Origin: Sporopachydermia quercuum
Lineage: Eukaryota
Reading direction: 5' to 3'
DNA length: 64,000 bases
Assembly: GCA_001599295.1 (NCBI GenBank)
Contig: BCGN01000002.1
Location: 1,922,001-1,986,000, forward strand
Shown: in pieces, positions 38,643 to 64,000 of the stretch
How positions within the stretch are numbered: the stretch's first letter is position 1
How the letters are laid out: every line of letters starts with the position of its first letter
Translations under genes and position numbers: made by a program
Notes under the pieces: model-generated
What the model was told of the DNA's origin: nothing
Databases searched by the model: none
The model's input: the letters and a program-made list of their open reading frames with translations, nothing else

Positions 38643-39719
38643 ATCTTAAATTTAATATGATAATAGACTGTTTGAATACCTGATAAATAGGTAAAAATTA
38701 AAAACTAAAAGTCTAAAAAAACTGGAAAAAAAAAGGTTTATTTTTTACCCTTGAGTATTTGATTCCTGGTGTATGAATGTATTCACGTCCAGTTGATTTG
38801 TATCGGGAGTACCTTGTTGTATATTTCTTTATTAGAATAGTCCTGATACTAAGATTTTGCCGTGAGAACTCATTTAGTAGATTCCTTTGATTCTTGGTGC
38901 CCACTGAAGAAATTGAAAGCCCTTTTGACTTCAAATCGCAGTTAAAAACTGATGTGACTGATTAAATCTGTTATTGATCTTCTCGTTGTTCTTCAGTTCC
39001 CGATGAAATAGACTTATGATTTCCTCCAAACAGTAAACAAACAGCAAGCGTAGGTAATAAATTATGTAAACTATTAATGGGGCTTGCTGTTCAACAAAAA
39101 AATCGTCTTGTGATTAGATTCGCAAGATTGATAAATGTCTGATACGTCAGTTCTTAGGTGTTGATATTTTTGTCAGTCCAATGAGTACATCCCACTCATA
39201 AATACAGGTTTGCCTGCCAATTGAAAATTTTTAGTAGTTTAAATTGGAAGAGCGAAACAACAATTGGTAACCCCAAAAATACTTACATATGCGATGATGT
39301 GCAATTCCTTGATAATAAAGAATAAAGGGTAAATTTTTTATCAGGTTGTTTGCTTCAAAATACAACAACTTTCATTTTTGTTCGTTCGTTTTTTGCTAGT
39401 ATTATTATTTGCTTTTCATTTCCCGCATCTTTCAATCCAATCGTTCTAACCTGTCTATTCTTAGGGGAGAGGATTTGGAATAAAGTTGGAGCGTTTGAAT
39501 AGAGTTGTTAAGATTGTGACGTTAAAATTTCAACTTTAACTTGAAATACGGAAACTTAGTATTGTGTACTGAATACTAGTGAAGCGAAGGAGAAATGTAC
39601 TTAAGGATGAATATGGAGATGGAAATGATGAGTAGGTAGATAGATGATGGCTTTTAAATAGATAGTGGGAGAGGAATATGAACAATGATTCGAATAGGTT
39701 AATGGAAATGCATTTTAAT

Positions 39720-40690
39720 GAATAGAGAATGTAAATAATTGAGTTTTGGCGGTGACGNAATTGTAGGGAAGTGGAGACGAAGTTGCCCAGTGGTATATTT
39801 GATTTATATGATATGTATATGTTCTTCTTTTTGGCATTTTATGATGAATGGAAATTGGAATAGAATAGTTACTGCAAAGTAAAATTTGCTGATTGAATAG
39901 TCATTTAAGCATAAAAGCTATCAGCTTTAATTATTAGTGGTTTACCCATGGTATTGCAATATATCTTAACCATAACAGATATCAAATCGTCTCAATGTCG
40001 AAATACAGTTTGGTATTCCACTACATCCCCCAATTATCAGTAGGCCTAAAAACTTGGGCTTCTCCTGATACTTGCTAAGATTCGATGTAATTTACAGAGC
40101 AACTCTAACTATGCTAACTGAGGTCTTGGGTATAACTGAAGCTATCAAGTTAAGGAGAAATAACGTTCAGGAACAAAAACCTAAGCCCATATGCAAGAGA
40201 TACTATGTAGATGTATATAGATAGTATTGAGAGTGACATTGATCTTATGTAGTTACTCAACCATATTAGTGTGGTCCGTGTTATTTTGCCTCGTATACTC
40301 ATTTACTATTGATTCCAAAAAGGTATAGCCTCTTCTTACTTTCTATATTCCTGTTGGCTTTACTGTATACGTACGTTTAAAATTGTCTCACTATGGCTGA
40401 ATTATTGAAGGAGGCAGTATGGATTGTGTAAGCAGTTAGTAATTCGACCGTGGCAACTAGTGATAGGGAGATTATAATGGAGCACTGATAGCATCAAAGC
40501 ATTTGAAAGTCAGAAGTCAACAAACTCATGAATTATCTCACATGAACAAAGAATAAGGAGAATAAAAGTAATTGAATTGGAAATCATTCTTGCTTCAACA
40601 ATAGGCATACAATGAGGTTGATCAGGTATGCAGTGTTGATGCATCTTTCATGCAAGAGATTTTTGGGTTAAGAAAGTTAATTGAATGTGT
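39720..40690 (+). mobile_element. Decayed Ty1/copia pol fragment (RT YVDD region to RNase H end)
   Basis: In order: NVNN*VLA (39728; cf. YVDD), FDLYDM...FL (39798), PM, CRNTV/GIPLHPPIISRP (39996-40047; cf. YRSIVGSLLYL...TRP), YLLRF, KEAVW (40408), GDYNGAL (40467), RSQQTHELSHMNKE (cf. RSKHIDxxYHxIRE), IELE (40571), LRKLI (40668). Confidence 0.65.
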
Positions 40691-40745
40691 CAGTTTGCTT
40701 GAAACGGTTACTTTAAACCCATTCAGCGAACAAATTTAGTAGGAA

Positions 40746-40764
40746 ATCTGATCTGATCTGATCT
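40746..40764. repeat. (ATCTG)n short tandem repeat
   Basis: ATCTGATCTGATCTGATCT. Confidence 0.8.
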
Positions 40765-40881
40765 ATCGTAATTTTGAGTTTACCTACTCTGACGCTAAGA
40801 ATATGAGTATAACGTTTGAGAATATCAGCTGAAGTTAGCGCTAAAATGTATAATTTCAAGTTTAAACAAATCAGGGTTATT

Positions 40882-40919
40882 TGCGTTCAATGAAGGTTTN
40901 NAAACCTTCATTGAACGCA
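40882..40919. repeat. Perfect 18-bp inverted repeat with an NN centre
   Basis: TGCGTTCAATGAAGGTTT-NN-AAACCTTCATTGAACGCA. Confidence 0.95.
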
Positions 40920-41260
40920 GTTTTAAAGATTGTTTCAGAGTGAGCGTAGATTTGTGTACAGTCTGGAAGCACTTGTTCTTAAAAGTTAATTTCCCAAGGA
41001 GTAAACTTTATGATATTACTGTTTAAACATAAAAACACCTTAACTATATTTCTACATAAAATACTCTAATGATCTTCAAATCGACAGTTTAAGTTTTCAA
41101 CTTAAAATTTAAAACCCAGTTGTTACAATTTGTTAGCTAGAAATTAATCTATAAAACGATATATGTTACAGGCTTTCTTATGATATGTATCAAATATATG
41201 TAATTAGTCAAACCAAGATTTGATGAGGAGAATGTGTAACAGACAATTGCAGGGTTTTAT

Positions 41261-41780
41261 GTACTCGGTTCCTTCCCTGATGTCAGCTTCAGGGATCATA
41301 CTAATATGCTTTTGACAGAATCCTGGTCTGCAGTTATCGCTCTATTTCCGCTCTCCATGGAATTAGACCCGCTAAAACAATACACTAAACATCCTTCTTA
41401 TGTAGGCCAGTAGCAAACTGAAATAGATATCAGATATGTTCTGTTTTATTTGTTTCATCTTATGGTGTATCAAAAAACTTGAATCTAATCAATTTAATGC
41501 AATTCATGACTTGAAACATGGTTGTTTATTTAACTCATTTCAAGAGATCGATACCCTTAATTAAAGTTTCAGTATGGTCGGTAAGTGTCCATATAGAACC
41601 GTTCAAGTGAAAAAAGGTACCAATTATTACTTGCGGAGTACAGATATATTCATTGTAGTAAATTTGAAATCAATTACAATCTGTTTATTCAAATTACAGT
41701 ATTGCACAATAATTGAACTTGGCAGTTCGTAGTTCTCTGAAAAAGTTGATTTCGAAGTCCCAAAGGTTATTTTTAAACTG
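41261..41780 (+). mobile_element. Possible further copia RNase H fossil
   Basis: Weak in-order motifs: SFPDVSFRDHTN (cf. FSDASFxD), PLS/W, HCSKFEINY, IIEL. Confidence 0.3.
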
Positions 41781-42479
41781 TATTAGTATCCAAACAGGAG
41801 ACGATCGATTTTCATCGATGATCGATACCCATTCCATTAATTTGATATTTCAAGATGAACCACGTACTCTGTTTCTTAAGTAAGTAAGCAATATCTAATT
41901 AAGAACTTATTTTTAAATATTTACAGAATGATTTCGAACTTATTACTATAAAGAAGATATAGAAATATATATGTATACGATTATTATGCATTGCTCGAAG
42001 AGCTCAACTGTTTCAAGATGAAGAGACGGAGCCTCGTATATTCAAAATCTTGTGAATTACCCCTCAGGTCTTCTTCCACATGTAAATATATGATTATGTA
42101 ATCATTTAGGTTGATGTGTATATGTAGGACTAACATTACCATCGAGATTACATGTGTGTGGTTAGAATGACAAGAAAACTGAAGTCAATCAATCAATTGT
42201 GGGGGAAAATCTCTATTTCAAGAATGCTGAACTGTGATACCTTATGGAATTGAAGTTGAAACATTTTGACGGGGCAAAGAATAAGTATATTCGGCAGCGA
42301 GAGGAAGCTAGGAGATAGGAAGACTGTTCAGACCCAGAAGAGAGTAAATCAAGAATCGTAACTACTCACTTGATTGCATAAACTCACAAGCAAATTTAAT
42401 TAAAAAGAAATCAGAAATCTTCAGTTGATTAATTCTGAAATTTTGTAGCTTAGAAATAGCTTGGAAAATTGTGGTAACA

Positions 42480-43479
42480 ATGGAAGTTGAAACTCAATGG
42501 CAAACAGTTACAGCTCTTCTAAAAGATTACTATCACCTTTATTCAGAATCAAGTTTAACATCTAGGAAGATTTCAGGCTTGACCAAAGAGAAGCTGGATT
42601 CTATCATTGAAGACAATGCTGATACGTTAAAAGCACAAATCAAACTGATAGAGTTCCATATTGGGTCAGTCAGAGAGGGTAGAGGGTATGTTCTTGAACA
42701 AAATGTTGGAAAAGTTTAAGTGCTTTTGGATTAGCAACATTAATACTAACGTATGGGCGTCTTTATATAGGCTTGTGAACAACCTACTGGAAAACATTTC
42801 TACACTAATTCCAATTGTGAAAGCTATCAATAAAGAAGAAGCAAGGGAAAGAGGAAGGAAAAGAAGGTTGGATGTTCCTGAAACGAGAAGTAAAAGAGGT
42901 AGAAGGTATGAACTTATCATTATAACACTAATGTTCATTATTAGTAGTGAGGATTACTAACAGTGAAAATAGTTTCCATACAAGTCAGTTTAATCCATCT
43001 GAACCTATAGTGACAGGTTCTGAGGTTGCATATAGGCTGAAGAAAGGTAAAGGAGGATCAGATGACGAATGGATTCAGTGCGTTATTACCCGTGTGATTG
43101 GCGATGGTACTAAGTATGTTTTCTTTTTTCTTTTTTTATAATTCAATTGAGGGGACAGGGACAGTATGAAAATACTAACAGAAATAGGTTTGAGGTACAA
43201 GATCCAGAACCTGATGAGAATAGCCAACCAGGGCAGTTATTCAGAACTACCTATAGAGATGTTCTTCTGATTCCGCCTCTGGAAATGTCGCCTTCACTGG
43301 TTAATTATCCTTATGGAACAGAAGTATTAGCAAGATATCCTGAGACCACCACATTTTATAAAGCAGAGGTTATAGGAATGAGAAGGGATTACTGTAGGCT
43401 TAAATTTGAAGGTGAAGAAGAAGTTGGGAAGGAGACTGAAGTTGAGAGAAGACTTGTTTTACCTTTACCATCCAAATGA
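42480..43479 (+). CDS. SGF29: SAGA subunit Sgf29 (tandem Tudor); exons 42480-42685, 42771-42905, 42973-43113, 43188-43479
   Basis: Three GT-AG introns with TACTAAC branch points restore 'KRGRSFHTSQFNPSEPI', 'EWIQC', 'FEVQDPEPDE' and 'VLARYPETTTFY'. Confidence 0.92.
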
Positions 43480-44175
43480 TTACACAATTCGAATTAAATT
43501 ATTGGTGAATTTGGATATATATTATTGGTGGATTAATGAGAAGAGTTATGTTTGTTTGTAGAATATCAACTAATCAAGTGATGATCTAAGGATTTAATAT
43601 GTGTACTATACTGTAGTTTCAGCTTATCATGCTCAACTATCGCAGCATCAGTTGAAGTCCCTTTAAGCGTAGTCTCAAAGAAAGTACCACAGGACCTAGT
43701 ATCAAGCCAATAGCTATTACTCAGTATCTGTAACAGTATTTACGTCAACATTACTCTCATAGTATTAATCATTTTACCTATTGAAAGTATCTACAAAAGT
43801 CACGTGAATGATTCCTTTTAGTTTAATGGTAAAATGAAGTACCTCTAATACTGAGTTTACACATGTCAAAATTTCAGTACAGAAGAGGGTATCTCTCGAG
43901 ACATAACTTCCATCTCCAGTAAATCACTAAACGCTAAGAGGAAAGGAAATGATTTCTTGGATTTCTCGGAAATTATTATTGGAAAAAGATACAACAATAC
44001 TACGCAATGCTCAATTCAACTGAAGGCTTTATACTGTAAGTTAGTTGGATCATTATATGGATGATTTCAGCGGTTGATGTTAGTAAGTGAAGTCTTGGTT
44101 TACTGCTAACATAATAGCATAGTCGNTAGTAGGAACTGTGAATGAGCTGTAGTTGAGTTGGTTGATTGTAACGTA

Positions 44176-45717
44176 ATGATGAGCCTAACAACAGTCAGTG
44201 GAATTACAGCTAGGTATTTCTCGATATCTACGATCACAAGACAAATGCCCGGATCGGATATTTCAAGCTTATCGAGTGATGGGCAGTTTCATCCTCGAAT
44301 CAAAACTCTTATCTCGCAGTTAGACAGAATTGCACCTAGGTTCACTCTTCAGAAAGATGAGGTAGATATAATATACGATCCAAAGGAATTCTATGAATAT
44401 TTGAAACTTCGAATAGGCCAAGCGGAAGACAGAATATTTTTGGCATCACTATACATTGGAAAGTCGCAGGATGAACTCGTACAACATTTAATTGCTGCTT
44501 TGAAGACGAAACCAAATTTAAAGCTTCATATCTTAACAGATGCTCTAAGGGGCACAAGAGAGGCGCCAAGAAAATGTTCAGCATCTTTACTCTCAACACT
44601 AACGAAAGAATTTGGGAACAGAGTTGATATTAGAATGTACCATACTCCTCATTTGTCAGGAGTGCAGAAATTTTTAGTACCCAAACGATTCAATGAGGTA
44701 TTTGGTTTACAACATATGAAGCTTTACGGGTTTGATGATGAAATAGTACTTTCTGGTGCCAATCTTTCAAGTGATTACTTTTCCAATAGACAAGACAGAT
44801 ATTATTCATTCAAATCAAAAGCCATTACTGATTATTATTTCAAAATCCACGAGGCCATAAGTTCCATTAGTTATAAGTTAGTGTCATCTACTAAGCCAAG
44901 GTTTAAGCTATACTGGCCTGGATCAAATGCTATATCAGAGCCAAAACTTAACCTTGAAAGATTCTTCGCTGAATCAACAGCACTATTGGAACCAATTTTG
45001 AAGCCTCAGCAAGGAACAATGGACCGTCTAGATTTAGATGAATCAGAAGTCTCCACAATTGTTTATCCCGTTTCCCAATTCACACCTATTACAGTGCCAG
45101 ATAAATCTACCGAGAAGCCAGCTATTTTGAGAATACTTTCATTACTAGATTCTAAAGACACAAATTGGGTTTTCACCGCTGGGTATTTTAATATTTATCC
45201 AGAATTTAAGGATAGGTTATTAATTTCCAGAGGTGAAGGAAAAGTTATAACGGCAGCTCCAGAAGCCAATGGATTTTATNAATCAAAAGGTGTATCTAAA
45301 TATCTGCCTGATGCCTATTTGTATCTTGCTCAAAGGTTTTTACAGAATGTGAAAGACCGACCATCAAATTGTGAAAATAAAATCGGTGTTTATGAGTGGA
45401 AAAANGGTGTTGTGAATCGTCCTAATGGCTGGTCGTATCATGCTAAAGGCATTTGGCTTTATAACCCACAAGAATCGAAGCCTAGTCTGACTGTTATTGG
45501 ATCGTCCAATTATACTAAAAGGGCATATCGACATGATCTAGAGTCCAATGCAATTTTAATCACAAAGGATGAGCAATTGAAGTCTAAAATGAATTTAGAA
45601 GTGAATCTCTTGTTGAAGCATGCCAACGAATTGAAGCTGAACGACTTTGAGAAAGAGAATAAGAAGATAGCGCCTTTAGTGAAACTTGCTACAAAAATTG
45701 TTGGAAATCTTCTTTGA
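44176..45717 (+). CDS. PGS1: Phosphatidylglycerophosphate synthase Pgs1 (PLD superfamily)
   Basis: 'IFLASLYIG', 'GLQHMKLYGFDD', 'SGANLSSDYFSNRQDRY', 'WSYHAKG'. First ATG at 44176. Confidence 0.96.
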   Translation: MMSLTTVSGITARYFSISTITRQMPGSDISSLSSDGQFHPRIKTLISQLDRIAPRFTLQKDEVDIIYDPKEFYEYLKLRIGQAEDRIFLASLYIGKSQDELVQHLIAALKTKPNLKLHILTDALRGTREAPRKCSASLLSTLTKEFGNRVDIRMYHTPHLSGVQKFLVPKRFNEVFGLQHMKLYGFDDEIVLSGANLSSDYFSNRQDRYYSFKSKAITDYYFKIHEAISSISYKLVSSTKPRFKLYWPGSNAISEPKLNLERFFAESTALLEPILKPQQGTMDRLDLDESEVSTIVYPVSQFTPITVPDKSTEKPAILRILSLLDSKDTNWVFTAGYFNIYPEFKDRLLISRGEGKVITAAPEANGFYXSKGVSKYLPDAYLYLAQRFLQNVKDRPSNCENKIGVYEWKXGVVNRPNGWSYHAKGIWLYNPQESKPSLTVIGSSNYTKRAYRHDLESNAILITKDEQLKSKMNLEVNLLLKHANELKLNDFEKENKKIAPLVKLATKIVGNLL

Positions 45718-46142
45718 TACTATTATATGAAGAACTCGTCTTATACCAATGATGACGAGTCTGAATGAGGGTAACAATTGATTGCCAAATCTGAAAGATA
45801 AATGAATGAGGATGAAGTGGAAGCTAGCTATCGGACTAATCCCTCTATTAATATCAAAGGTTAAGGATGTAGATACATATGTATATAAAAATTATAGAGT
45901 AAACTCTTAACTGAATAAGAAAGAACCTTTGAACGGACGAATATTCAAGGAAGGACGAAGCGGTAACATGCTTCACCATTAGAGATTTTGTCCCTCTTGT
46001 AGGAGATCCACTCTTGAATGTTCAACAGAACTACGGCTTTATCTACCTGGTTAGTTCTACTTGTTAGGTATTATAATTCTTAGTAGCATTTGGTATTTGA
46101 AATATAACAGCAAGCAAAAATAAAATAAATGATAAAAAATGG

Positions 46143-46238
46143 CGTCACGGACAGGATTCGAACCTGCGCAGGTAAAACCCAACGCCTAAACCACACACTA
46201 ATAGCAGGGCGTCGCCTTAACCACTCGGCCACCGGGAC
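46143..46238 (-). tRNA. tRNA-Ser(GCT) with 14-nt intron (46201-46188)
   Basis: Reverse complement GTCCCGGTGGCCGAGTGGTTAAGGCGACGCCCTGCTA[TTAGTGTGTGGTTT]AGGCGTTGGGTTTTACCTGCGCAGGTTCGAATCCTGTCCGTGACG; long variable arm. Confidence 0.96.
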
Positions 46239-54047: not shown

Positions 54048-55023
54048 TTAAGAACCAGCCATGTTTCTAATAACCTCAGAGTGTAATGTCCTTTCCTGGG
54101 TGACTTCTGACAAAGCTACAGGAGATCTCAAATCACCGACTATATCCCTGGTTTTTCCAAAATAAACCTCCTGAAGCATATTTCGAAGTTTTGATTCAAT
54201 ATCTTCAATAATGGTTCCCAAATTGATAATGTGGGAGCTAGAGTTATCAACGGATACCCTTTTCTCTGTTTGACGAGTAAGATTACCACTGAGATCTAAA
54301 GCTGTAGAAGAGACAGAGGAAGATAAATCTAAAATAATTGTTGATGTCACCTTATAACTAACAGTGCCTCTTCCTTCCGGATTGACTTCAAATACATGAA
54401 TACTATCCCACGAGCCACCGTTATTGGAGTCTAACGTCTTCTTTATCAAGACAACACCAGCAAAAGAATAATCAACCAAAGCTTTTTCATAGTCATCTCC
54501 ATCTCCTCCAGATTCATCTAAATCCCATAAATAAACACTTGACACACCTCCTTCATAATATGACTCTCGATATAAATCAAACGAATCATTCATATGTTTT
54601 TCCAGTCTTCTCAAATTATGACTTGGATATGGACATTCATCATCCCCTTCTGATGGCGCTGGAGTGTAAGTATTAGTCCAAGGACTTCTGTAGGAGTCTC
54701 CATCGCGATTATAATCACAAATAAGATATGGCTTGTTGACTTTTGAATCTGATTTGATTATTAATGGTTGATCAATAGAAGACAATAGGTCTTCTGCAAT
54801 ATCCGATGACAACTGACATAATGAAGTCAAATTCTCTCCGATGTTTTTTGGACTAAGCCTTCTAAGAAGGTCTAATGATGCATCAAGCGAGTCTTCAGCC
54901 TATAAGCACAAATGTTAGTTAAGCTGAGGAATTGCAGCGATTTGAAGAGCCAATTGAAGCAGGAAAGATTCAATTGAGAAGGAGGAGATCGGAATAGTTA
55001 TTGTAATCTCCACAACATACCAT
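54048..55023 (-). CDS. CAP2: F-actin capping protein beta subunit; ATG-only first exon (55023-55021) plus 54899-54048
   Basis: Intron 55020-54900 (GTATGT...ACTAAC...TAG) gives 'MAEDSLDASLDLLRRL'; 'CDYNRDGDSYRSPW', 'WDSIHV'. Confidence 0.95.
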
Positions 55024-55972: not shown

Positions 55973-56060
55973 TCGGCAATAGTTTAGTGGCTAGAATTTC
56001 CGCCTGTCAGGACATTTGTTCAGCACGCGGGGGACCGGGGTTCAATTCCCCGTTGCCGAG
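55973..56060 (+). tRNA. tRNA-Asp(GTC) with 16-nt intron (56010-56025)
   Basis: Acceptor TCGGCAA/TTGCCGA plus G; anticodon arm TCCGC-CT-GTC-A[intron]C-GCGGG; T arm CGGGG-TTCAATT-CCCCG; T-run downstream. Confidence 0.93.
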
Positions 56061-56355: not shown

Positions 56356-57609
56356 TTATAATTTTGCCAAAGATTGCTTATAGTCTGAGTTGTTATAAAT
56401 AGTAGAGTATACTGCTGTTTCTGTAGCCAAGTAACTATTGAAACATGGCTCATCATAGCAAGGAAGAACATGGGAAGCCCATACTCCAGCTATTCCTGAT
56501 TTACGATCAATCCAATAATAGATATTAGTCAATCCACACCAAAAACAACTGCCTGGAGGCTTTCCTGAAGGCGTTTGATCATTGTAAATAAGAAAGGTCA
56601 AACCCCAGCCTGCATCAACACCAGGAAATATGTCAAAGCTTCTTGATGCTATGGGATTAGCAGAGTCAAGATGCCTAAGAATTTTCACTCCCTGGGCTGG
56701 TAAATGATCTGATGTAGCCAGTTCAATTGTCTCCTTCTGCAAGATAACGTTTCCGGTTTCTATACAAACACCATCATTGAGCCACATTCTAAGAAACTTC
56801 ATATAATCTTTTATAGTTCCATATAATCCATGCCCACCATGTTGTAATTCAGGGTTCAGAGGGTACTTATCCCTGGTGGGAATAAGTTTCTTATCGGCAA
56901 CTCTCATATGCACTGTGACTTGTCTTTTTTGATATTCCTCATCACGCATAAACCGGAAAGATGTAATGGAAAGTGGCTTGAATATGCGTTCTGTACAATA
57001 TTCTTCAGGTGTTAAACCTGTTGCTCCTTCTAAGACTAAACCTAACCAATCTATATTGATTCCATAGAACCATCTACTGCCAGGATCAAATAATAGAGGC
57101 GCAATTATAGAGTCTCTTTTACCTGTGGTAAGATTGGGTTTCCCTGTTGCTTTCTGTAGCTTCATGTACTCTTCACTGTAGAAAGGGTATGCTAAGCCCG
57201 TGGTATGGGTCATCAATTGAAGTATAGTTATATCGGATTTAGGTGCCCTTAATATGGGCTCACCATTACTGTCAAATCCTTCAATAACTTTCAACTCTGA
57301 AATCTCAGGAACGAACTTCTTCGCTGAATCACTCAATTTTAGTACTCCCTTCTCCATAAGTTGAAGAATTGCAACACCGATCACAATCTTAGTACAAGAG
57401 AAGAAGGGATAGATAATGTCTCCCGTTAAAGGTTCATTTTTTCCTATTGTTTTGGTACCAAAGAACCCTGAATAAATATCTTCATTCTTATCGGTCACAT
57501 AGGCTGTAATGCCAGGTATATTATTTGGGTTTGCGGTTGATTTTTTCAACACTTCATCAATCTTCTTTTTGATTTCTGCTCGTTGCTTAGCGTTCACTTC
57601 AATTGTCAT
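56356..57609 (-). CDS. Beta-lactamase-fold serine esterase (family VIII/EstB-like) with C-terminal PTS1
   Basis: SxxK 'FSCTK', 'LMTHTTGL', 'PLLFDPGSRWFYGINIDW', 'GGHGLY', 'FWCGLTNIYYWIDR'; ends in -AKL. Confidence 0.9.
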   Translation of the reverse strand: MTIEVNAKQRAEIKKKIDEVLKKSTANPNNIPGITAYVTDKNEDIYSGFFGTKTIGKNEPLTGDIIYPFFSCTKIVIGVAILQLMEKGVLKLSDSAKKFVPEISELKVIEGFDSNGEPILRAPKSDITILQLMTHTTGLAYPFYSEEYMKLQKATGKPNLTTGKRDSIIAPLLFDPGSRWFYGINIDWLGLVLEGATGLTPEEYCTERIFKPLSITSFRFMRDEEYQKRQVTVHMRVADKKLIPTRDKYPLNPELQHGGHGLYGTIKDYMKFLRMWLNDGVCIETGNVILQKETIELATSDHLPAQGVKILRHLDSANPIASRSFDIFPGVDAGWGLTFLIYNDQTPSGKPPGSCFWCGLTNIYYWIDRKSGIAGVWASHVLPCYDEPCFNSYLATETAVYSTIYNNSDYKQSLAKL

Positions 57610-58518
57610 TGCGATGATTTTTTTCGAATGCTCAAACCAAGACCAACTTTGCTTGTTGAGGTTCTATGAATTATGTTAGCAATAAGACTCGGTTTTTAAT
57701 GGATGAATGAGTGAATGTTACGCTGCAAATTATAAGTAAAATAATTTCACGACAAGATGGACACATAATATACGTACTTCTGTTTCAAAATAGCTCCTGC
57801 TGTTTTTCTATGCTGGAGGCAGAAAGGGTTGATGTAAGTATAAAGAAACCCCACAGAAAGATAATTGATCCGAGGCTTAAGCAATCAAAGTTTAAGTTGA
57901 CAAGCAGTTTCTCTGCACATTTTAGTTTGAGTTAAAGTTGAGTTTCTAAGGCAGGCAGAATTCTACTGTTTTTGTTGAAAATAGTAACGGTGATTTGATT
58001 TAAATCAGCAGCTTATTTGAGGAAACAACAAGAAATAAAAGTCAGATATGCCCAATTGAGTTTTATTCAATTATTGTTTATTGAATGCTGAGAAGCATTC
58101 TTTCTCTTACTCCACGGTTTCATTATCCAGTTTGAGTTTCTTAGAAATTGCAAACCTTGTTTTCGACTTGAAAGCTTAAAAGCTTCTTTGCATATTTATA
58201 CAGATCTCGTTCTACAGAAAGCGATCCATTCGAAATATAACAATAGTCATTGTCAATTTAAATAGCAAATAGAATAGATAATAAATAACCGAAACATTAC
58301 ACATATAATCACCAGCTTTCCTTCTTTATCCTCAGAAACCATTTGTTAACTTCCTTCACCCGTGTTTGGACAAATAAAGAAACTAATAAACTCACAAACC
58401 AATTATTTCTATACAGCAAAAAAACTGTATCTAACCAGAGGTTATTACGAACGTTTGTTCCCTTATTTTATGAACAAACATAAATCTCCAATTTCATAAT
58501 CACAACCCAGAATAAATA

Positions 58519-58566
58519 TAAATAAATAAATAAATAAATNAATAATAAAAATAAATAAATAAATAA
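58519..58566. repeat. Imperfect (TAAA)n microsatellite
   Basis: Run of TAAA units in the NAD kinase 3' region. Confidence 0.8.
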
Positions 58567-58682
58567 GCAAATCAATAGCATAATAACTGTATCACACTAT
58601 TGAATTGAGATCAGTTCTTGACAAACTAAATGTCAGTATTGACTGCGTCAATTCATGAGCATTATCTAATACCATGCCAGCT

Positions 58683-60230
58683 TCAGCGATAGATCTTTTC
58701 ATCAAGCTCTGTACGATCAACATCTAAATCCAAATCGGAGCTTGATTCATTATCCGATAATGCAAGTTCATCTATTCGATGATGTCCATTGCCGTTACCA
58801 TTAATGTCACCATTTGGTCCATCTTCAAGGTTCTCATAGTTCAGTTTATTCTTCTTAGACAGAAGATGAGCAAATGGTCTTTGCTGTTCTCTAACGTTCC
58901 ATTTCAAGGTCCTGCTAACGCTATCAATATAATCTGTTGGTTTAGATATTATGGTGGGAAATGGATACTGTGATACACTAACCTCAACATAATCTCCGGC
59001 TTTAATCTCAGTTCTATCCCTGCCATCAAAAGATGCCCATGCTGTAGATCTTGACTTCGCAGGTATTGAAACCCTGAGTTTCATTGAATCAGGTAATAGC
59101 ATAGGTCGAAATGATAAGGTATGGGGACAAATTGGCGTAACAGAAATAGCAGAAACCTCAGGATGAACTAATGATCCACCAGCAGAAAGTGAATAAGCTG
59201 TAGAGCCCGTTGGTGTTGATAGGATTAATCCATCTGCCTGAACGACAGTCAATAAGTTTCCATCTCCATATAGTTCTAGCATAGATATCCAGGGACTAGG
59301 ACCTCGATCAACAACAATCTCATTCAAAACTTGATGTGAGCTTATCAATTCATCATTACTATTATAAATTGAACAAAGAAACCTCATACGAAGATTCACT
59401 CTAAACCCTTCTTCGAAAATACTCCTCAAAGTTGATCTAAAGTTTTCAAATATGAAGTTCGTTAGGAAACCTAGACTGCCGAGTCTGAAAGCCATTACTG
59501 GAGGAACAACTTCTTGAAACAATCCAGACACATATAAAACTGTACCATCACCACCTAATGCTATAACTAAATCAAATAAGTTTGGAGATTTTTTTGCGAG
59601 TTCAGTATCCCAATATTTCAAATAGCCTTCAAAAGATGGATTATCAGCAATCAAACCTGAACTATTGAACCTTTTCGAGTTCCTCAATTTATGATCAACA
59701 TAAACAGTAACTGGTCTTTCACATTTGACAGATAGATCAGCAAACGAATTTGAATTTGAGCTTGATTGCGATGAAGATGCAGATGAAGTACTTTTAACAC
59801 CAGAGATAAGCCATTCAGCCACTTCTCTTGTAAGATAAACAAGGGAATTATCTCTTGCCTTAGTTACAATCATCACCGACTGAACGTTTAAATGGACAAT
59901 AGCTTCCCGCAGCTGAAAAGCTAACCGTTTGACTTCAGTGGCTGTTTTAACACTAGATTTCTATGTTAGCATATAGGAAAGTAGGTGAACAGAACTATTG
60001 ACAAGTATGACTGGCTAATAGAACAATAAGAACGTCCCTAAATTGACTACCATTCAAAACCCAATTATTACATACTAATTTGAATGCGAGATTTTTCCTT
60101 CACCCTTATCTAGATTACCTTTATTAGAAGGTGGCACTTCTTCCACAACAGCATCGCTGAACTTCTCATGAATGTAGCAACCATTGCCAATATCGGAGGA
60201 TCTAGGATTCTCCCTAGTGTTGAAATACAT
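58683..60230 (-). CDS. UTR1: ATP-NAD(H) kinase, Utr1/Yef1-like; exons 60230-60076 and 59952-58683
   Basis: 'LGGDGT', 'LGSLGFL', 'VLNE', 'TPTGSTAYSLSAGGS'. Intron 60075-59953 (GTATGT...GCTAAC...TAG) gives 'SHSNYVKTATEVKRLA'. Confidence 0.9.
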
Positions 60231-61902
60231 GGCTCTTCTTTATTCTTCTCTTCGACTAGCTGATTTTAAGATACTTTTGTTCAAGAATTCTCTTCTTTCT
60301 CACTTATCAGGTTTATTTTGTTTCGACTTGTTGTTTATTGAGGACTTCTCACACTACTTCTATGTTTTAGTGACAGTTGATCAACCTCATACAATGATTA
60401 TGTAGTCTTAGAATAACACTATCAGTAAAAAGAATATCAATAAAATTGTTTTCAATGCAAATGAGTTCAAGGCATAAATTCAATTACCTCGCTGCTATCC
60501 TTCTATCTATTAAACTTCTAACTTTCACTCCTATCTTTCAAGTAGAGTTGAAAGGCAAGGCGATAGAATAACAGAACTCACAGATCTATGAGCAGAGCCA
60601 ATGTCTGAGATTATAAGCTAGCCCACCCAACACCTTACTCTAAGTTCAATCCAAGCCAATAACTCTTTGTAAAAGAAAACAACACTTAAACGAATATAAA
60701 AAATGCTCTCCTTCCTTCTTTCTTTTTATCGTTCTTGTCTCCTTTTTCTTTTTATCCGAAGTGAAACTCTGCTTGAAAAATTCGCTTTTTGGGCTATCTT
60801 TCAGAAAAAAAGGTTAAATACTCAAAATAATGTATGATGACGTGAACAGATATTTGTCCAAATTAACCCGATGGTGATTAAGCGGATTGGAACCGGAAAA
60901 ATGTCAAATTGATGACAGGGAGGCAATATCAATATGAAATGTAGATGTTTTGTGCCTGCGATTCATGGAGTAGACAATTAAGTTATTCGCAAAAGTTGTG
61001 GATTTTGTTAAATTGATGATAGTCACAAATGATGTTTCCAGAAATCAGTACTCAGTTCTGTTTTAGGTGCTAATTTGTAGGATTTTAATGTAGACAAAGA
61101 AGAGAGGTAGACTACGATACGTAGCCAAATTATATCCAAGACGATGACAATATTGACAGTGGATGCGCACAGTCTTTTAGATACAAAGCTAAATATCAAT
61201 ACAATACAAGGAATAATTCGAAAATGACTATCAAGCAGAATAGAATCAATACGGAAAAACAGAGACTCTCATTTATACATCGGGTATTCTTTTCAGCGTT
61301 TTGGGAAGTATATAGCAATTCACCAGTATGCAGCTCTTCTACAAGGTGATGATGAAAAACTTCAAAGGAGCTTCCCCACATAAAATCCGATTTCACCGTG
61401 GGAAAATCATCATCAATCCCTAAACAGTACAGTGCTATCTAAAAGTAATGATAAAGCATATCTGATGTTAGTTTTATGTACCTTTTCCATTGCCCGTATA
61501 TCTCTTTTTGTGGTGTCCTTCCCCCACATTCATGCTATGTATCTGATGACTCACCTGATTGACAGGAAAAACAGATGCGCAAACGCAAAAGAAGTATAAC
61601 TCGGTGAAATCAAGGTGTCAATTAAAGAACAACAAACAAACAAACAGTGACATGATAGTGATCTCCACAATGCTAATCATCGAATGAATAGTTCTGCTTC
61701 ATCCTCATCTATGATCAATCTGTGTACCTGACTGGCAATGCATTGATTGTCAGGGTTGTCATGACGGCAAAATGTTTTTCTGATAGTCAACAAGACATTG
61801 GTTCAGGACAATCAAGACATTGTGACATGAGAAATCACGTGATATCTCGAAATAAACTGTCTCATAAGAGGTGATATGAAGAACCTCATATTTCTAGTAT
61901 TG

Positions 61903-62744
61903 TTACTAATGGCGCTGTTTTTCTGGCTGGCCAGCTTATCACCATTGTAGTTTAAGTTAATAGCAAAAAAAGGTCCATAAATATGATGGGTTAATAGAAT
62001 GGCAGGAAGCATAAAAATTCTGGTATATTAGAAACATCTGTCTAGCAGTTTTTTAGGAAAAGTTTAACTGTTGGAAGCGTCCCCAATGATTGCACATCAA
62101 GTCTGAATCTTCGTTAATGATACCTCATTTGGCTAACGATACAAATAGATCAACATGATATAGACATAGGATAGAAATAGGATAAATTTATCACTATCTT
62201 TGTTGCATTGCAGTAGAAATATATTCTAACGACTTAGTCACGATTCTCTCTTTATTCATAGAACATATAAGTTGAAACAAGACTCATATTTCAGAGGTAG
62301 ACAACTTATGTATGTTGAAGGGTTCATCTTCCTTCTGCATTTCACCAGATCTCTATTCTGATATGACTTCATTCTAGAAAACCGTTGGCCTGAAATCAGT
62401 GACAAATGACCTAAGAAGATTCCGATTTATCGTTATCATCTATTGTATATCGATCATAAAAGTTTTACTAGTAAATAGACTGTCTTACTAAAGATAAAGT
62501 TTATCTTTAAGCTAAAATCTAGGCTCTACATGTGTGACAACATTTTCTTACCGATCTTTCTTCTTATCTAAGCATTGTCGTGTTGTTGAGAGGATCAACA
62601 GAAAGAAAGGAAAAATTTATTCATCAAACATCCAATATTTTTGCCATACTATTTCAAGCAGTTATTTATTTCATCATTTCTTTCATCTCATTTGATCCAT
62701 GTCATTCTTAGACTTCTGAATCATCTCGCATCTTACTTTACTAA
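61903..62744. promoter_or_regulatory. Yap1 response elements upstream of thioredoxin
   Basis: TTACTAA at 61903, 62485 and 62738; TTAGTCA at 62234. Confidence 0.5.
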
Positions 62745-63250
62745 GTGGATTAATAAGCAATTGCGTTACCGAACACTTCTTTAACATGGGATTAAAAATC
62801 AAATCACTCCAACGCCTCAATTCATTATAAATACTTATCAATTATTTACAGCAGAGACTTTCATATATAAATAGCTGCTCATGCCTTCCTTTTCTTATTT
62901 TTCTTTAATTCTTTAATACCTTTCGCATCCTTCCAANTCCTATCATTAATTCCATATCGTCATCATACATTTCATCATATCATCTGTCCCATTGCTCATC
63001 CTTCAGGACTCACGTACAAACATCATATGAAAGGGGAACTGGAACGGCCATCAATCACATCACCATATTAGCATTAATTCTGTTTCACTTCTTCACCTAC
63101 TGTATTATTGTGCTATATCATAGAAGCTATAGAAAAGAATCCAATCAATCAATCCATCGGATATAAATCGACGAAAAAAAGATTAACCTAGTCAGTATAG
63201 TATACATTTAGTACTAAATCAAATCACCAGCGTACAATAAATTCATCACA

Positions 63251-63562
63251 ATGGTTGAACAAATTAAATCAGTTGAACAATTCAAAGAAGTCACATCTGC
63301 TTCAAATTTAGTCGTTATTGACTTCTTTGCTACCTGGTGCGGACCTTGCAAGATGATTTCACCAGTTATTGAAAAATTCTCAAAGGAATTCACTGATGCC
63401 AGTTTCTACAAGGTTGATGTTGATGAATTATCATCTGTTGCTGCTGAAAACGACATCTCATCAATGCCAACATTTTTATTCTTCAAAGAAGGTAAAGTCA
63501 TTGGTAAGGTGATTGGTGCTAATCCATCTGCTATTAAAAATGCTATTCAACAAGCTTTATGA
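63251..63562 (+). CDS. TRX1: Cytosolic thioredoxin
   Basis: 103 aa; 'DFFATWCGPCKMISP'. TRX1 and TRX2 cannot be distinguished. Confidence 0.97.
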   Translation: MVEQIKSVEQFKEVTSASNLVVIDFFATWCGPCKMISPVIEKFSKEFTDASFYKVDVDELSSVAAENDISSMPTFLFFKEGKVIGKVIGANPSAIKNAIQQAL

Positions 63563-64000
63563 CTATACAGCAAGCTATAAACAGGTCAAATGGAATGGTC
63601 TATTATATAATATGTTTCTTTATAAATGATTGAATATATGTTCATTTCAAATAGAACGAGCGTAGATACTCGTATTGTATATGTACTCTAGAAGCAAAGG
63701 ACAAAGGAAGAGTAACGGAAGCAATGAATGTATGTAGAGCAAACCAAAATTAGAAGAGATAAAGAGTAAACCAAACCTGTATATAGTTGAAGTATTTCGT
63801 AGCGAAATATATCATATTCTGAGAGAGGTCAAAATAGCCGGATGTTAGAATGTTCATATATTTGTTTACTTCTAGTAAACCTGACCTTCAGTTCCTTGAA
63901 ACAACTCTTCCATATTTGTCACTGTCATCTACTTGGAAAGCAAATATTGATTACTTGATTTTCTGAATAAATTGATGGATATTAGGTGAGTCTTTTGATC

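Follow-up and report, generated by a model that had tools for sequence, protein, structure and literature searches.

On contig BCGN01000002.1 of the Sporopachydermia quercuum assembly GCA_001599295.1, a stretch of 64,000 nucleotides (positions 1,922,001 to 1,986,000 of the forward strand; the window, in whose coordinates all positions below are given) is unremarkable yeast chromosomal DNA with a GC content of about 35%. Here, we focus on one gene in this window, an intronless esterase gene on the minus strand, whose product resembles the bacterial methyl acetate hydrolase AcmB and ends in AKL, a peroxisomal targeting signal type 1 (PTS1). An earlier note on this DNA had read the gene as a bacterial esterase that was acquired by horizontal transfer beside a tRNA gene and then retargeted to the peroxisome. 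Our analysis points, as more likely than not, to a resident, single-copy budding-yeast gene, belonging to a family that extends over several Saccharomycotina classes and has bacterial AcmB-type methyl acetate hydrolases as its closest relatives. The gene, its motifs and its immediate landmarks are as follows.

56356..57609, minus strand: esterase coding sequence, 417 aa, predicted PF00144 family-VIII-type serine esterase, intronless, stop codon included (open reading frame list, Pfam, NCBIfam AcmB model, AlphaFold2).
57388..57399, minus strand: S71-C-T-K74, the SxxK motif with the predicted nucleophile serine and general-base lysine (translation; aligns with S-A-T-K of LovD).
57064..57066, minus strand: Tyr182 of the predicted Ser-Lys-Tyr triad (translation; aligns with the Y of LovD 'wiYgagidw').
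56533..56541, minus strand: W357-C-G359, the W-x-G motif (translation check).
56740..56772, minus strand: loop G280-L290 (GVCIETGNVIL), nine residues between two anchors, the long yeast/fungal form (loop-length count).
56359..56367, minus strand: C-terminal A-K-L, canonical PTS1 (translation; stop codon at 56356-56358).
57610..58682, minus strand: upstream intergenic region (promoter), from the esterase ATG to the NAD kinase stop (sequence read).
55973..56060, plus strand: tRNA-Asp(GTC) gene with a 16-nt intron, a landmark with no part in esterase function (Rfam, ARAGORN).

The esterase open reading frame (ORF) opens at an ATG preceded by in-frame stops, and its product matches the Pfam family PF00144 (Beta-lactamase) over residues 30-381 with 144.7 bits against a cut-off of 27 (E 4.9e-42). 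Residues 12-404 are colinear with bacterial proteins in alignment, and for this reason the gene is taken to lack introns. In family VIII esterases, the tyrosine of a Ser-Lys-Tyr triad has a catalytic role and a W-x-G motif stands in place of K-T-G. All of these elements are present here: S71, K74, Y182 and W357 are invariant in the 47 rows of an alignment of bacterial and fungal proteins (A3), where G359 is nearly invariant, and S71 and K74 are also invariant in two further alignments (A1 and A2). The description given in the earlier note, an intronless family VIII esterase with an intact SxxK motif and tyrosine and with a PTS1 tail (the protein ends in ...SLAKL), is therefore sound. The gene contains two CTG codons (residues 251 and 297), both at variable positions and hence uninformative on CTG reassignment.

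Structural comparison places the protein in the same fold class. The AlphaFold2 model has a predicted local distance difference test score (pLDDT) of 95.4 and a predicted template-modelling score (pTM) of 0.94, and Foldseek matches it to LovD, EstG, EH7 and EstU1 with template-modelling (TM) scores of 0.78-0.81; the 47 matches by sequence in the Protein Data Bank (PDB) are likewise headed by LovD, EstG and EstU1. The relatives of known structure fall into two groups. LovD, the simvastatin synthase of Aspergillus terreus (PDB 3HLE, 4LCM), and the lovastatin esterase PcEST (6KJC) have the same Ser-Lys-Tyr arrangement at a TM score of about 0.8, but are only 26-28% identical to the query, and LovD is an acyltransferase from a polyketide cluster. 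EstU1 (4IVI), EstB (1CI8), Est-Y29, EH7 and EstG are esterases on a beta-lactamase fold that share the SxxK motif, the tyrosine and the replacement of K-T-G by W-x-G; they differ in being bacterial or metagenomic, cytoplasmic or periplasmic, 19-26% identical to the query and without PTS1. These comparisons establish the fold and the catalytic motifs. As part of the reading set out above, and at the same degree of probability, the motifs and family matches suggest that the query is a serine carboxylesterase of beta-lactamase fold, family VIII (PF00144), acting through Ser71-Lys74-Tyr182.

Far closer relatives are found among bacterial proteins annotated for small-ester hydrolysis. A search of 5.8 billion clusters returned 2374 matches, of which the best 120 were listed; these are 390-435 aa long and 42-46% identical to the query (E 1e-104 to 9e-112, 369-392 bits), methyl acetate hydrolase and 1,4-butanediol diacrylate esterase are frequent labels, and the organism names among them are all bacterial (Amaricoccus, Gordonia, Bradyrhizobium, Paracoccus, Rhodovulum and others). 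NF052559, the NCBIfam equivalog for AcmB, aligns with the query across positions 4-390 of its 391. The query shares fold, length and catalytic motifs with AcmB of Gordonia sp. TY-5 and with the bacterial clade represented by this model; identity extends from end to end, and the strings VIEGFD..GEP.LRAPKSD, PLLFDPG, GGHGLY, RMWLNDG and YWIDR are common to both sides. The five strings quoted in the earlier note are present at residues 108, 171, 258, 272 and 365, nearly letter for letter the bacterial consensus, and its claim that the protein lies closer to bacterial methyl acetate hydrolase and butanediol diacrylate esterase proteins than to LovD is confirmed by the scores (369-392 versus 141.6 bits). 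The query differs from bacterial AcmB in several respects: a lower score against the model, a loop G280-L290 two residues longer, an extra C-terminal tail with AKL, a position outside the well-supported bacterial clade described below, and the lack of an adjoining Baeyer-Villiger monooxygenase (BVMO) gene.

The last of these differences bears on function. In Gordonia sp. TY-5, acmA and acmB form a bicistronic operon, and the esterase AcmB splits the methyl acetate made by acetone monooxygenase, according to PMC6215540. This arrangement recurs among bacterial relatives of the query. When the best 80 of at least 575 prokaryotic loci were examined for a stop-to-stop ORF of at least 300 aa with the type I BVMO fingerprint, such an ORF was found directly upstream of the esterase gene and on the same strand in 35 (Bradyrhizobium, Gordonia, Tistlia, Craurococcus, Methylobacterium, Sphingomonas and others); the other 45, including the listed Rhodobacterales and Rhodococcus, have no BVMO within the flanks examined. 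All four fingerprint ORFs that were checked belong to PF00743, the flavin-containing monooxygenase (FMO)-like flavoproteins. By analogy with these relatives, which would act on esters of the kind that a BVMO makes from ketones, the most likely function of the query is that of a peroxisomal hydrolase of small carboxylic esters. In the proposed mechanism, Pex5 would read the flexible C-terminal -AKL and the folded esterase would be imported into the peroxisomal matrix, where small carboxylic esters would be hydrolysed through an acyl-Ser71 intermediate, releasing an alcohol and a short acid.

The query is not the only yeast protein of this kind. A second search, of 1.84 billion cluster representatives, followed by a look-up of names for 30 representatives, showed that no fewer than 10 budding yeasts identified to species have a homologue: Tortispora caseinolytica (two paralogues), Babjeviella inositovora, Candida viswanathii, Scheffersomyces spartinae, S. 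stipitis, Pichia kluyveri, Sungouiella intermedia, Hyphopichia burtonii, Priceomyces carsonii and Neoaidaea (Dipodascopsis) tothii. For nine of these species the homologues share the major clade of the query, and Neoaidaea tothii comes in addition; among the four species whose lineage was looked up, three Saccharomycotina classes are represented. Proteins deposited as 'Beta-lactamase-related domain-containing' (for example ODV91956.1 of Tortispora caseinolytica, XP_018985438.1 of Babjeviella inositovora, RCK59358.1 of Candida viswanathii and XP_043051379.1 of Scheffersomyces spartinae) share with the query its major clade, the long loop and, in many cases, a PTS1 end (AKL, SKL, AKI), and score 339-455 bits against the AcmB model; they are, however, only 31-39% identical to it, and no close orthologue of the query was found among the yeast relatives. 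Homologues from Wickerhamomyces pijperi and the basidiomycete Coniophora puteana fall into a more distant clade. A protein deposited for another basidiomycete, Cerrena zonata (KAK7676922.1), shares a 90%-identity cluster with the homologue from Hyphopichia burtonii, pointing either to yeast DNA in that assembly or to transfer in very recent times. Our literature searches turned up neither a description of a yeast PF00144 esterase with PTS1 nor a tested function for the yeast members, and the passages seen of a review of fungal lactamases (PMC5610705) mention neither peroxisomes nor Saccharomycotina.

The yeast and bacterial proteins were compared at two features of the sequence. The first is the C-terminus, where the bacterial proteins in an alignment of 11 stop 6-10 residues earlier than the query, with ends such as AA, NS and AS. 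The PTS1 consensus is [SAC][KRH][LM], which AKL fits. Counting any end of the form [SAC][KRH][LMI] or x-K-[LI] as PTS1-like, 11 of the 25 yeast-type rows of the tree described below have one compared with 0 of the 120 bacterial matches, which agrees with the expectation in the earlier note that bacterial homologues lack the tail. Seven of the yeast ends are canonical (AKL in the query, Babjeviella and P0192; SKL in C. viswanathii, S. spartinae and P0255; AKI in P0173), many relatives at 31-39% identity in the representatives search and first tree end in SKL, AKL or similar tripeptides, and in the more distant fungal clades Wickerhamomyces ends in AKL and Coniophora in FKL. PTS1-like ends thus recur across the yeast family and are no invention of this gene. 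The second feature is the loop G280-L290, which has nine residues in the query (VCIETGNVI), eight or nine in all 24 other yeast-type rows and seven in 118 of the 120 bacterial top matches; it reads KCPETGFQI in the Pichia kluyveri cluster and has nine residues in Wickerhamomyces and eight in Coniophora.

The relationship between the two groups was examined in a maximum-likelihood (ML) tree of 65 rows under LG+C20+F+G4 with posterior mean site frequencies (PMSF). In this tree a clade of 40 rows (support 97/84) joins the bacterial AcmB clade with yeast rows; within it, 15 bacterial rows form a clade with support 99/95 that leaves the query outside, and the query adjoins a clade of 19 yeast rows. 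The tree has a short backbone and long end branches among the yeasts (0.34-1.03; query 0.88); in the bacterial clade, end branches of named members measure 0.03-0.26, except for two at 0.68 and 0.87. When all 25 yeast-type rows were constrained to form one clade, the likelihood was 1.8 log units worse than that of the free search (p-AU 0.311), and the arrangement is not rejected. One yeast sequence behaves differently: Neoaidaea tothii P0130 (XP_066790151.1) lies inside the bacterial AcmB clade, beside a 'methyl acetate hydrolase', and nevertheless has a yeast-type eight-residue loop and a KHL terminus; its position reflects either an independent transfer or the misplacement of a long branch.

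A bacterial appearance is shared by other members of the yeast family. The best bacterial match of a Tortispora protein has 48.2% identity compared with 39.4% for the best match in another yeast, and Babjeviella, the second Tortispora paralogue, P0131 and Neoaidaea are likewise closer to bacteria than to other yeasts. Even when a profile is made from 15 yeast-type rows, bacterial proteins come out on top (467-489 bits), and only P0255 of the 14 database rows in that profile is among the 120 matches listed, the other 119 being of bacterial type. We attribute the bacterial look of the deep yeast members to unequal rates, because the bacterial clade evolves slowly and so stays near the family consensus, while the yeast members evolve fast. 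The bacterial look is a property of the whole yeast family and does not signal recent transfer into this genome.

Several results count against the gene being a resident member of a yeast family of peroxisomal ester hydrolases. The node uniting the query with the yeast clade has a support of only 80/84, and constraining the query to group with the 15 bacterial rows gives a log-likelihood 2.6 better than that of the free search (p-AU 0.647). As a character, the loop amounts to one indel of uncertain polarity. Only 10 of the 24 other yeast-type rows in the tree carry names, all 10 of them Saccharomycotina, and the other 14 are counted as yeast solely by their position among named yeasts. With regard to function, the query scores 435.5 bits against the AcmB model, under the curated cut-off of 550, so its substrate may differ; the Paracoccus and Gordonia controls reach 721.6 and 727.6 bits, and the yeast relatives, at 338.8-455.3, are sub-threshold too. 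The closest solved structure, LovD, is an acyltransferase rather than a hydrolase; no BVMO fingerprint was found in the six frames of the 64-kb window, so that the partner monooxygenase that the earlier note had proposed to look for is absent from this stretch; and PTS1-like ends are missing from 14 of the 25 yeast-type rows, which means that a peroxisomal location is not universal in the family.

The approximately unbiased (AU) tests cannot place the query, since neither the arrangement with the bacterial clade as its sister nor a single yeast clade is rejected. Because the bacterial-sister position is not rejected, the yeast family may go back to an ancient inter-domain transfer at or close to its base; it may also be older in fungi. 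In its fullest form, the transfer would be one ancient capture of a bacterial acmB-type gene, encoding the hydrolytic partner of a ketone-oxidising BVMO, that founded the whole yeast family, with PTS1 gained early and diversification later, and with peroxisomal splitting of small methyl and ethyl esters in many yeasts; we regard this history as a tentative proposal, improbable as it stands. The broader claim of the earlier note, that the gene is an acquired one, keeps a part of its force from the AU tests, which leave the bacterial-sister position available, and loses another part to the homologues in at least 10 yeast species, the 99/95 clade that excludes the query, and the yeast-type loop. 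The finding that it had named as decisive against it, a protein nested within a vertically inherited fungal clade, is closely approached, but the tree does not settle it.

The location of the protein is a separate matter. We infer from the C-terminal sequence that the esterase is peroxisomal; the alternative is a cytosolic enzyme whose AKL is fortuitous or masked. The yeast-type rows without a PTS1-like end speak for the cytosol, as does the promoter of the esterase, in which no oleate-response-element pattern was found. A single CCTCGG occurs at 57870-57875 (minus strand), 261-266 bp 5' of the esterase ATG, and this hexamer, which fungal fatty-acid regulators of FarA/Ctf1 type bind, is here only a lead: the window has five such sites and 5.2 are expected by chance. 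Against a cytosolic enzyme stand the fit of AKL to the canonical consensus, the recurrence of PTS1-like ends in the yeast rows and their lack in the bacterial matches, and their presence in the more distant fungal clades of Wickerhamomyces and Coniophora. The tripeptide, moreover, lies on an added tail: mean pLDDT in the AlphaFold2 model falls to 79 at residues 401-410 and to 49 at 411-417, which fits the last seven residues being an exposed, flexible tail. A cytosolic location is unlikely on this evidence.

The main rival for the function itself is a LovD-like acyltransferase, which would move an acyl group onto an alcohol or carrier and would be no hydrolase. LovD is the best solved match of the query by sequence (141.6 bits, E 3e-40) and by fold (E 1.5e-32, TM 0.79), one yeast homologue was named 'Acyltransferase mlcH' by its depositor, and the fold matches include EstCE1, a hydrolase with promiscuous acyltransferase activity. 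The query is nevertheless far closer to the AcmB model than to LovD (435.5 versus 141.6 bits), the window contains no polyketide synthase or other cluster gene, and 'mlcH' is an automatic label rather than a tested function. We therefore hold an acyltransferase to be distinctly unlikely, somewhat more so than a cytosolic location, and retain ester hydrolysis as the predicted activity.

Least well supported is a transfer of this gene alone, from bacteria into this yeast lineage and independently of the other yeast homologues, followed by gain of the AKL tail. Its attraction lies in the search results, in which the best 120 listed matches are all of bacterial type and no closer fungal protein is present in the 5.8 billion clusters, and in the slightly better likelihood of the query with the bacterial clade. 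The position of Neoaidaea tothii P0130 inside that clade makes separate transfers into yeasts conceivable, and there may be precedents, as beta-lactamase genes of bacterial origin are reported for Kuraishia capsulata and Blastobotrys adeninivorans in PMC5499181 and PMC3879985. The missing close fungal matches, on the other hand, are not peculiar to the esterase. The closest matches of the neighbouring NAD kinase are only 55-68% identical and are spread across Ogataea, Magnusiomyces, Lipomyces, Cyberlindnera, Candida and others, so that the esterase lacks close fungal matches because the organism is without a near relative in the protein database. Nor is there a compositional or codon-usage trace of a foreign origin: the gene has a GC content of 0.384 and a GC content at third codon positions (GC3) of 0.325, compared with 0.345-0.398 and 0.244-0.365 in the other 16 genes of the window, and its relative synonymous codon usage (RSCU) correlates with that of the other genes at 0.805, rank 14 of 17 and within the range of similar-sized neighbours. 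The 99/95 bacterial clade that leaves the query outside, its yeast-type loop, the greater closeness of Tortispora, Babjeviella and others to bacteria than to other yeasts and the recurrence of PTS1 ends in the family all stand against a lone transfer as well. A recent, lineage-specific transfer is thus very unlikely, and the sequence of events envisaged in the earlier note, acquisition in this lineage followed by gain of PTS1, is not borne out by the yeast homologues, many of them ending in SKL or AKL, or by the native composition and codon usage; a lone transfer, recent or otherwise, has the lowest probability of the alternatives. The tRNA gene, which the earlier note had correctly placed about 300 bp away (295 bases separate tRNA-Asp(GTC) from the stop codon), was considered as a mark of integration and rejected: its closeness carries no weight because the window contains three tRNA genes, so that several genes have a tRNA neighbour.

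A contaminant bin of reads is excluded by Logan contigs. In two runs, the esterase and NAD kinase genes lie together on contigs of 101 kb and 37 kb with no differing letters, and the depth of the esterase matches that of its flanks (34.4 versus 32.4 and 100.6 versus 97.8). As the window may itself derive from these runs, they are no independent proof. The contigs break only at the tRNA-Asp gene because it is repeated sequence. Two runs from other organisms of the same study, X4 and X5, matched the stretch at the tRNA alone, which does not show that those organisms lack the esterase gene.

The case illustrates how best matches that are all bacterial can mislead about transfer, here because a slowly evolving bacterial clade lies next to fast-evolving yeast sequences in an organism without a near database relative. 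Of modest interest in its own right is the existence in budding yeasts of an uncharacterised family of AcmB-like esterases, many of whose members carry a peroxisomal signal and whose bacterial relatives are operon partners of BVMOs. Should the yeast enzymes prove to be peroxisomal ester hydrolases, ketone, ester and alcohol metabolism in yeast peroxisomes would gain a step, and the family would become a candidate case of an old acquisition between domains that was redirected to an organelle. Were the ancient capture to have taken place, an undescribed step would free alcohol and acetate in an organelle with oxidases, catalase and acetyl-unit metabolism.

The neighbours of the esterase are housekeeping yeast genes. 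Among the products encoded in the window are major facilitator superfamily (MFS) transporters, Anp1, a ubiquitin hydrolase, Oxa1, a RhoGAP/RasGEF protein, a phospholipase D (PLD)-type synthase, a mitochondrial carrier, F-actin capping protein beta (exon 2) and NAD kinase. The F-actin capping protein beta ORF at 54048-54593 (minus strand) covers only profile positions 95-237, so the first exon must lie upstream across an intron. Two regions, 38643-44175 and 59874-64000, are poor in ORFs of at least 90 aa, having only two overlapping ones of 90 aa (at 42.7 kb) and one of 103 aa (at 63.3 kb). An AT-rich, (TTTA)n-like simple repeat at 58507-58577 separates the promoter of the esterase from the NAD kinase 3' end.

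Two of the tRNA calls in the window depend on how introns are handled. The tRNA at 55973-56060 (plus strand) scores 49.6 bits with Rfam RF00005 and is called tRNA-Asp(GTC) with a 16-nt intron by ARAGORN when introns are allowed; the default ARAGORN run misses it. The gene at 46140-46238 (minus strand), with 45.7 bits for the Rfam tRNA model, is called 'tRNA-Stop (tta)' by default and becomes tRNA-Ser(GCT) with a 14-nt intron when introns are allowed. Finally, the window contains 59 isolated N bases (for example at 45280, 45405, 50835 and 52559), none of them in the esterase gene; they put X into the translations of the PLD-type synthase, a MYND protein and the mitochondrial carrier, and look like masked ambiguous or heterozygous sites.

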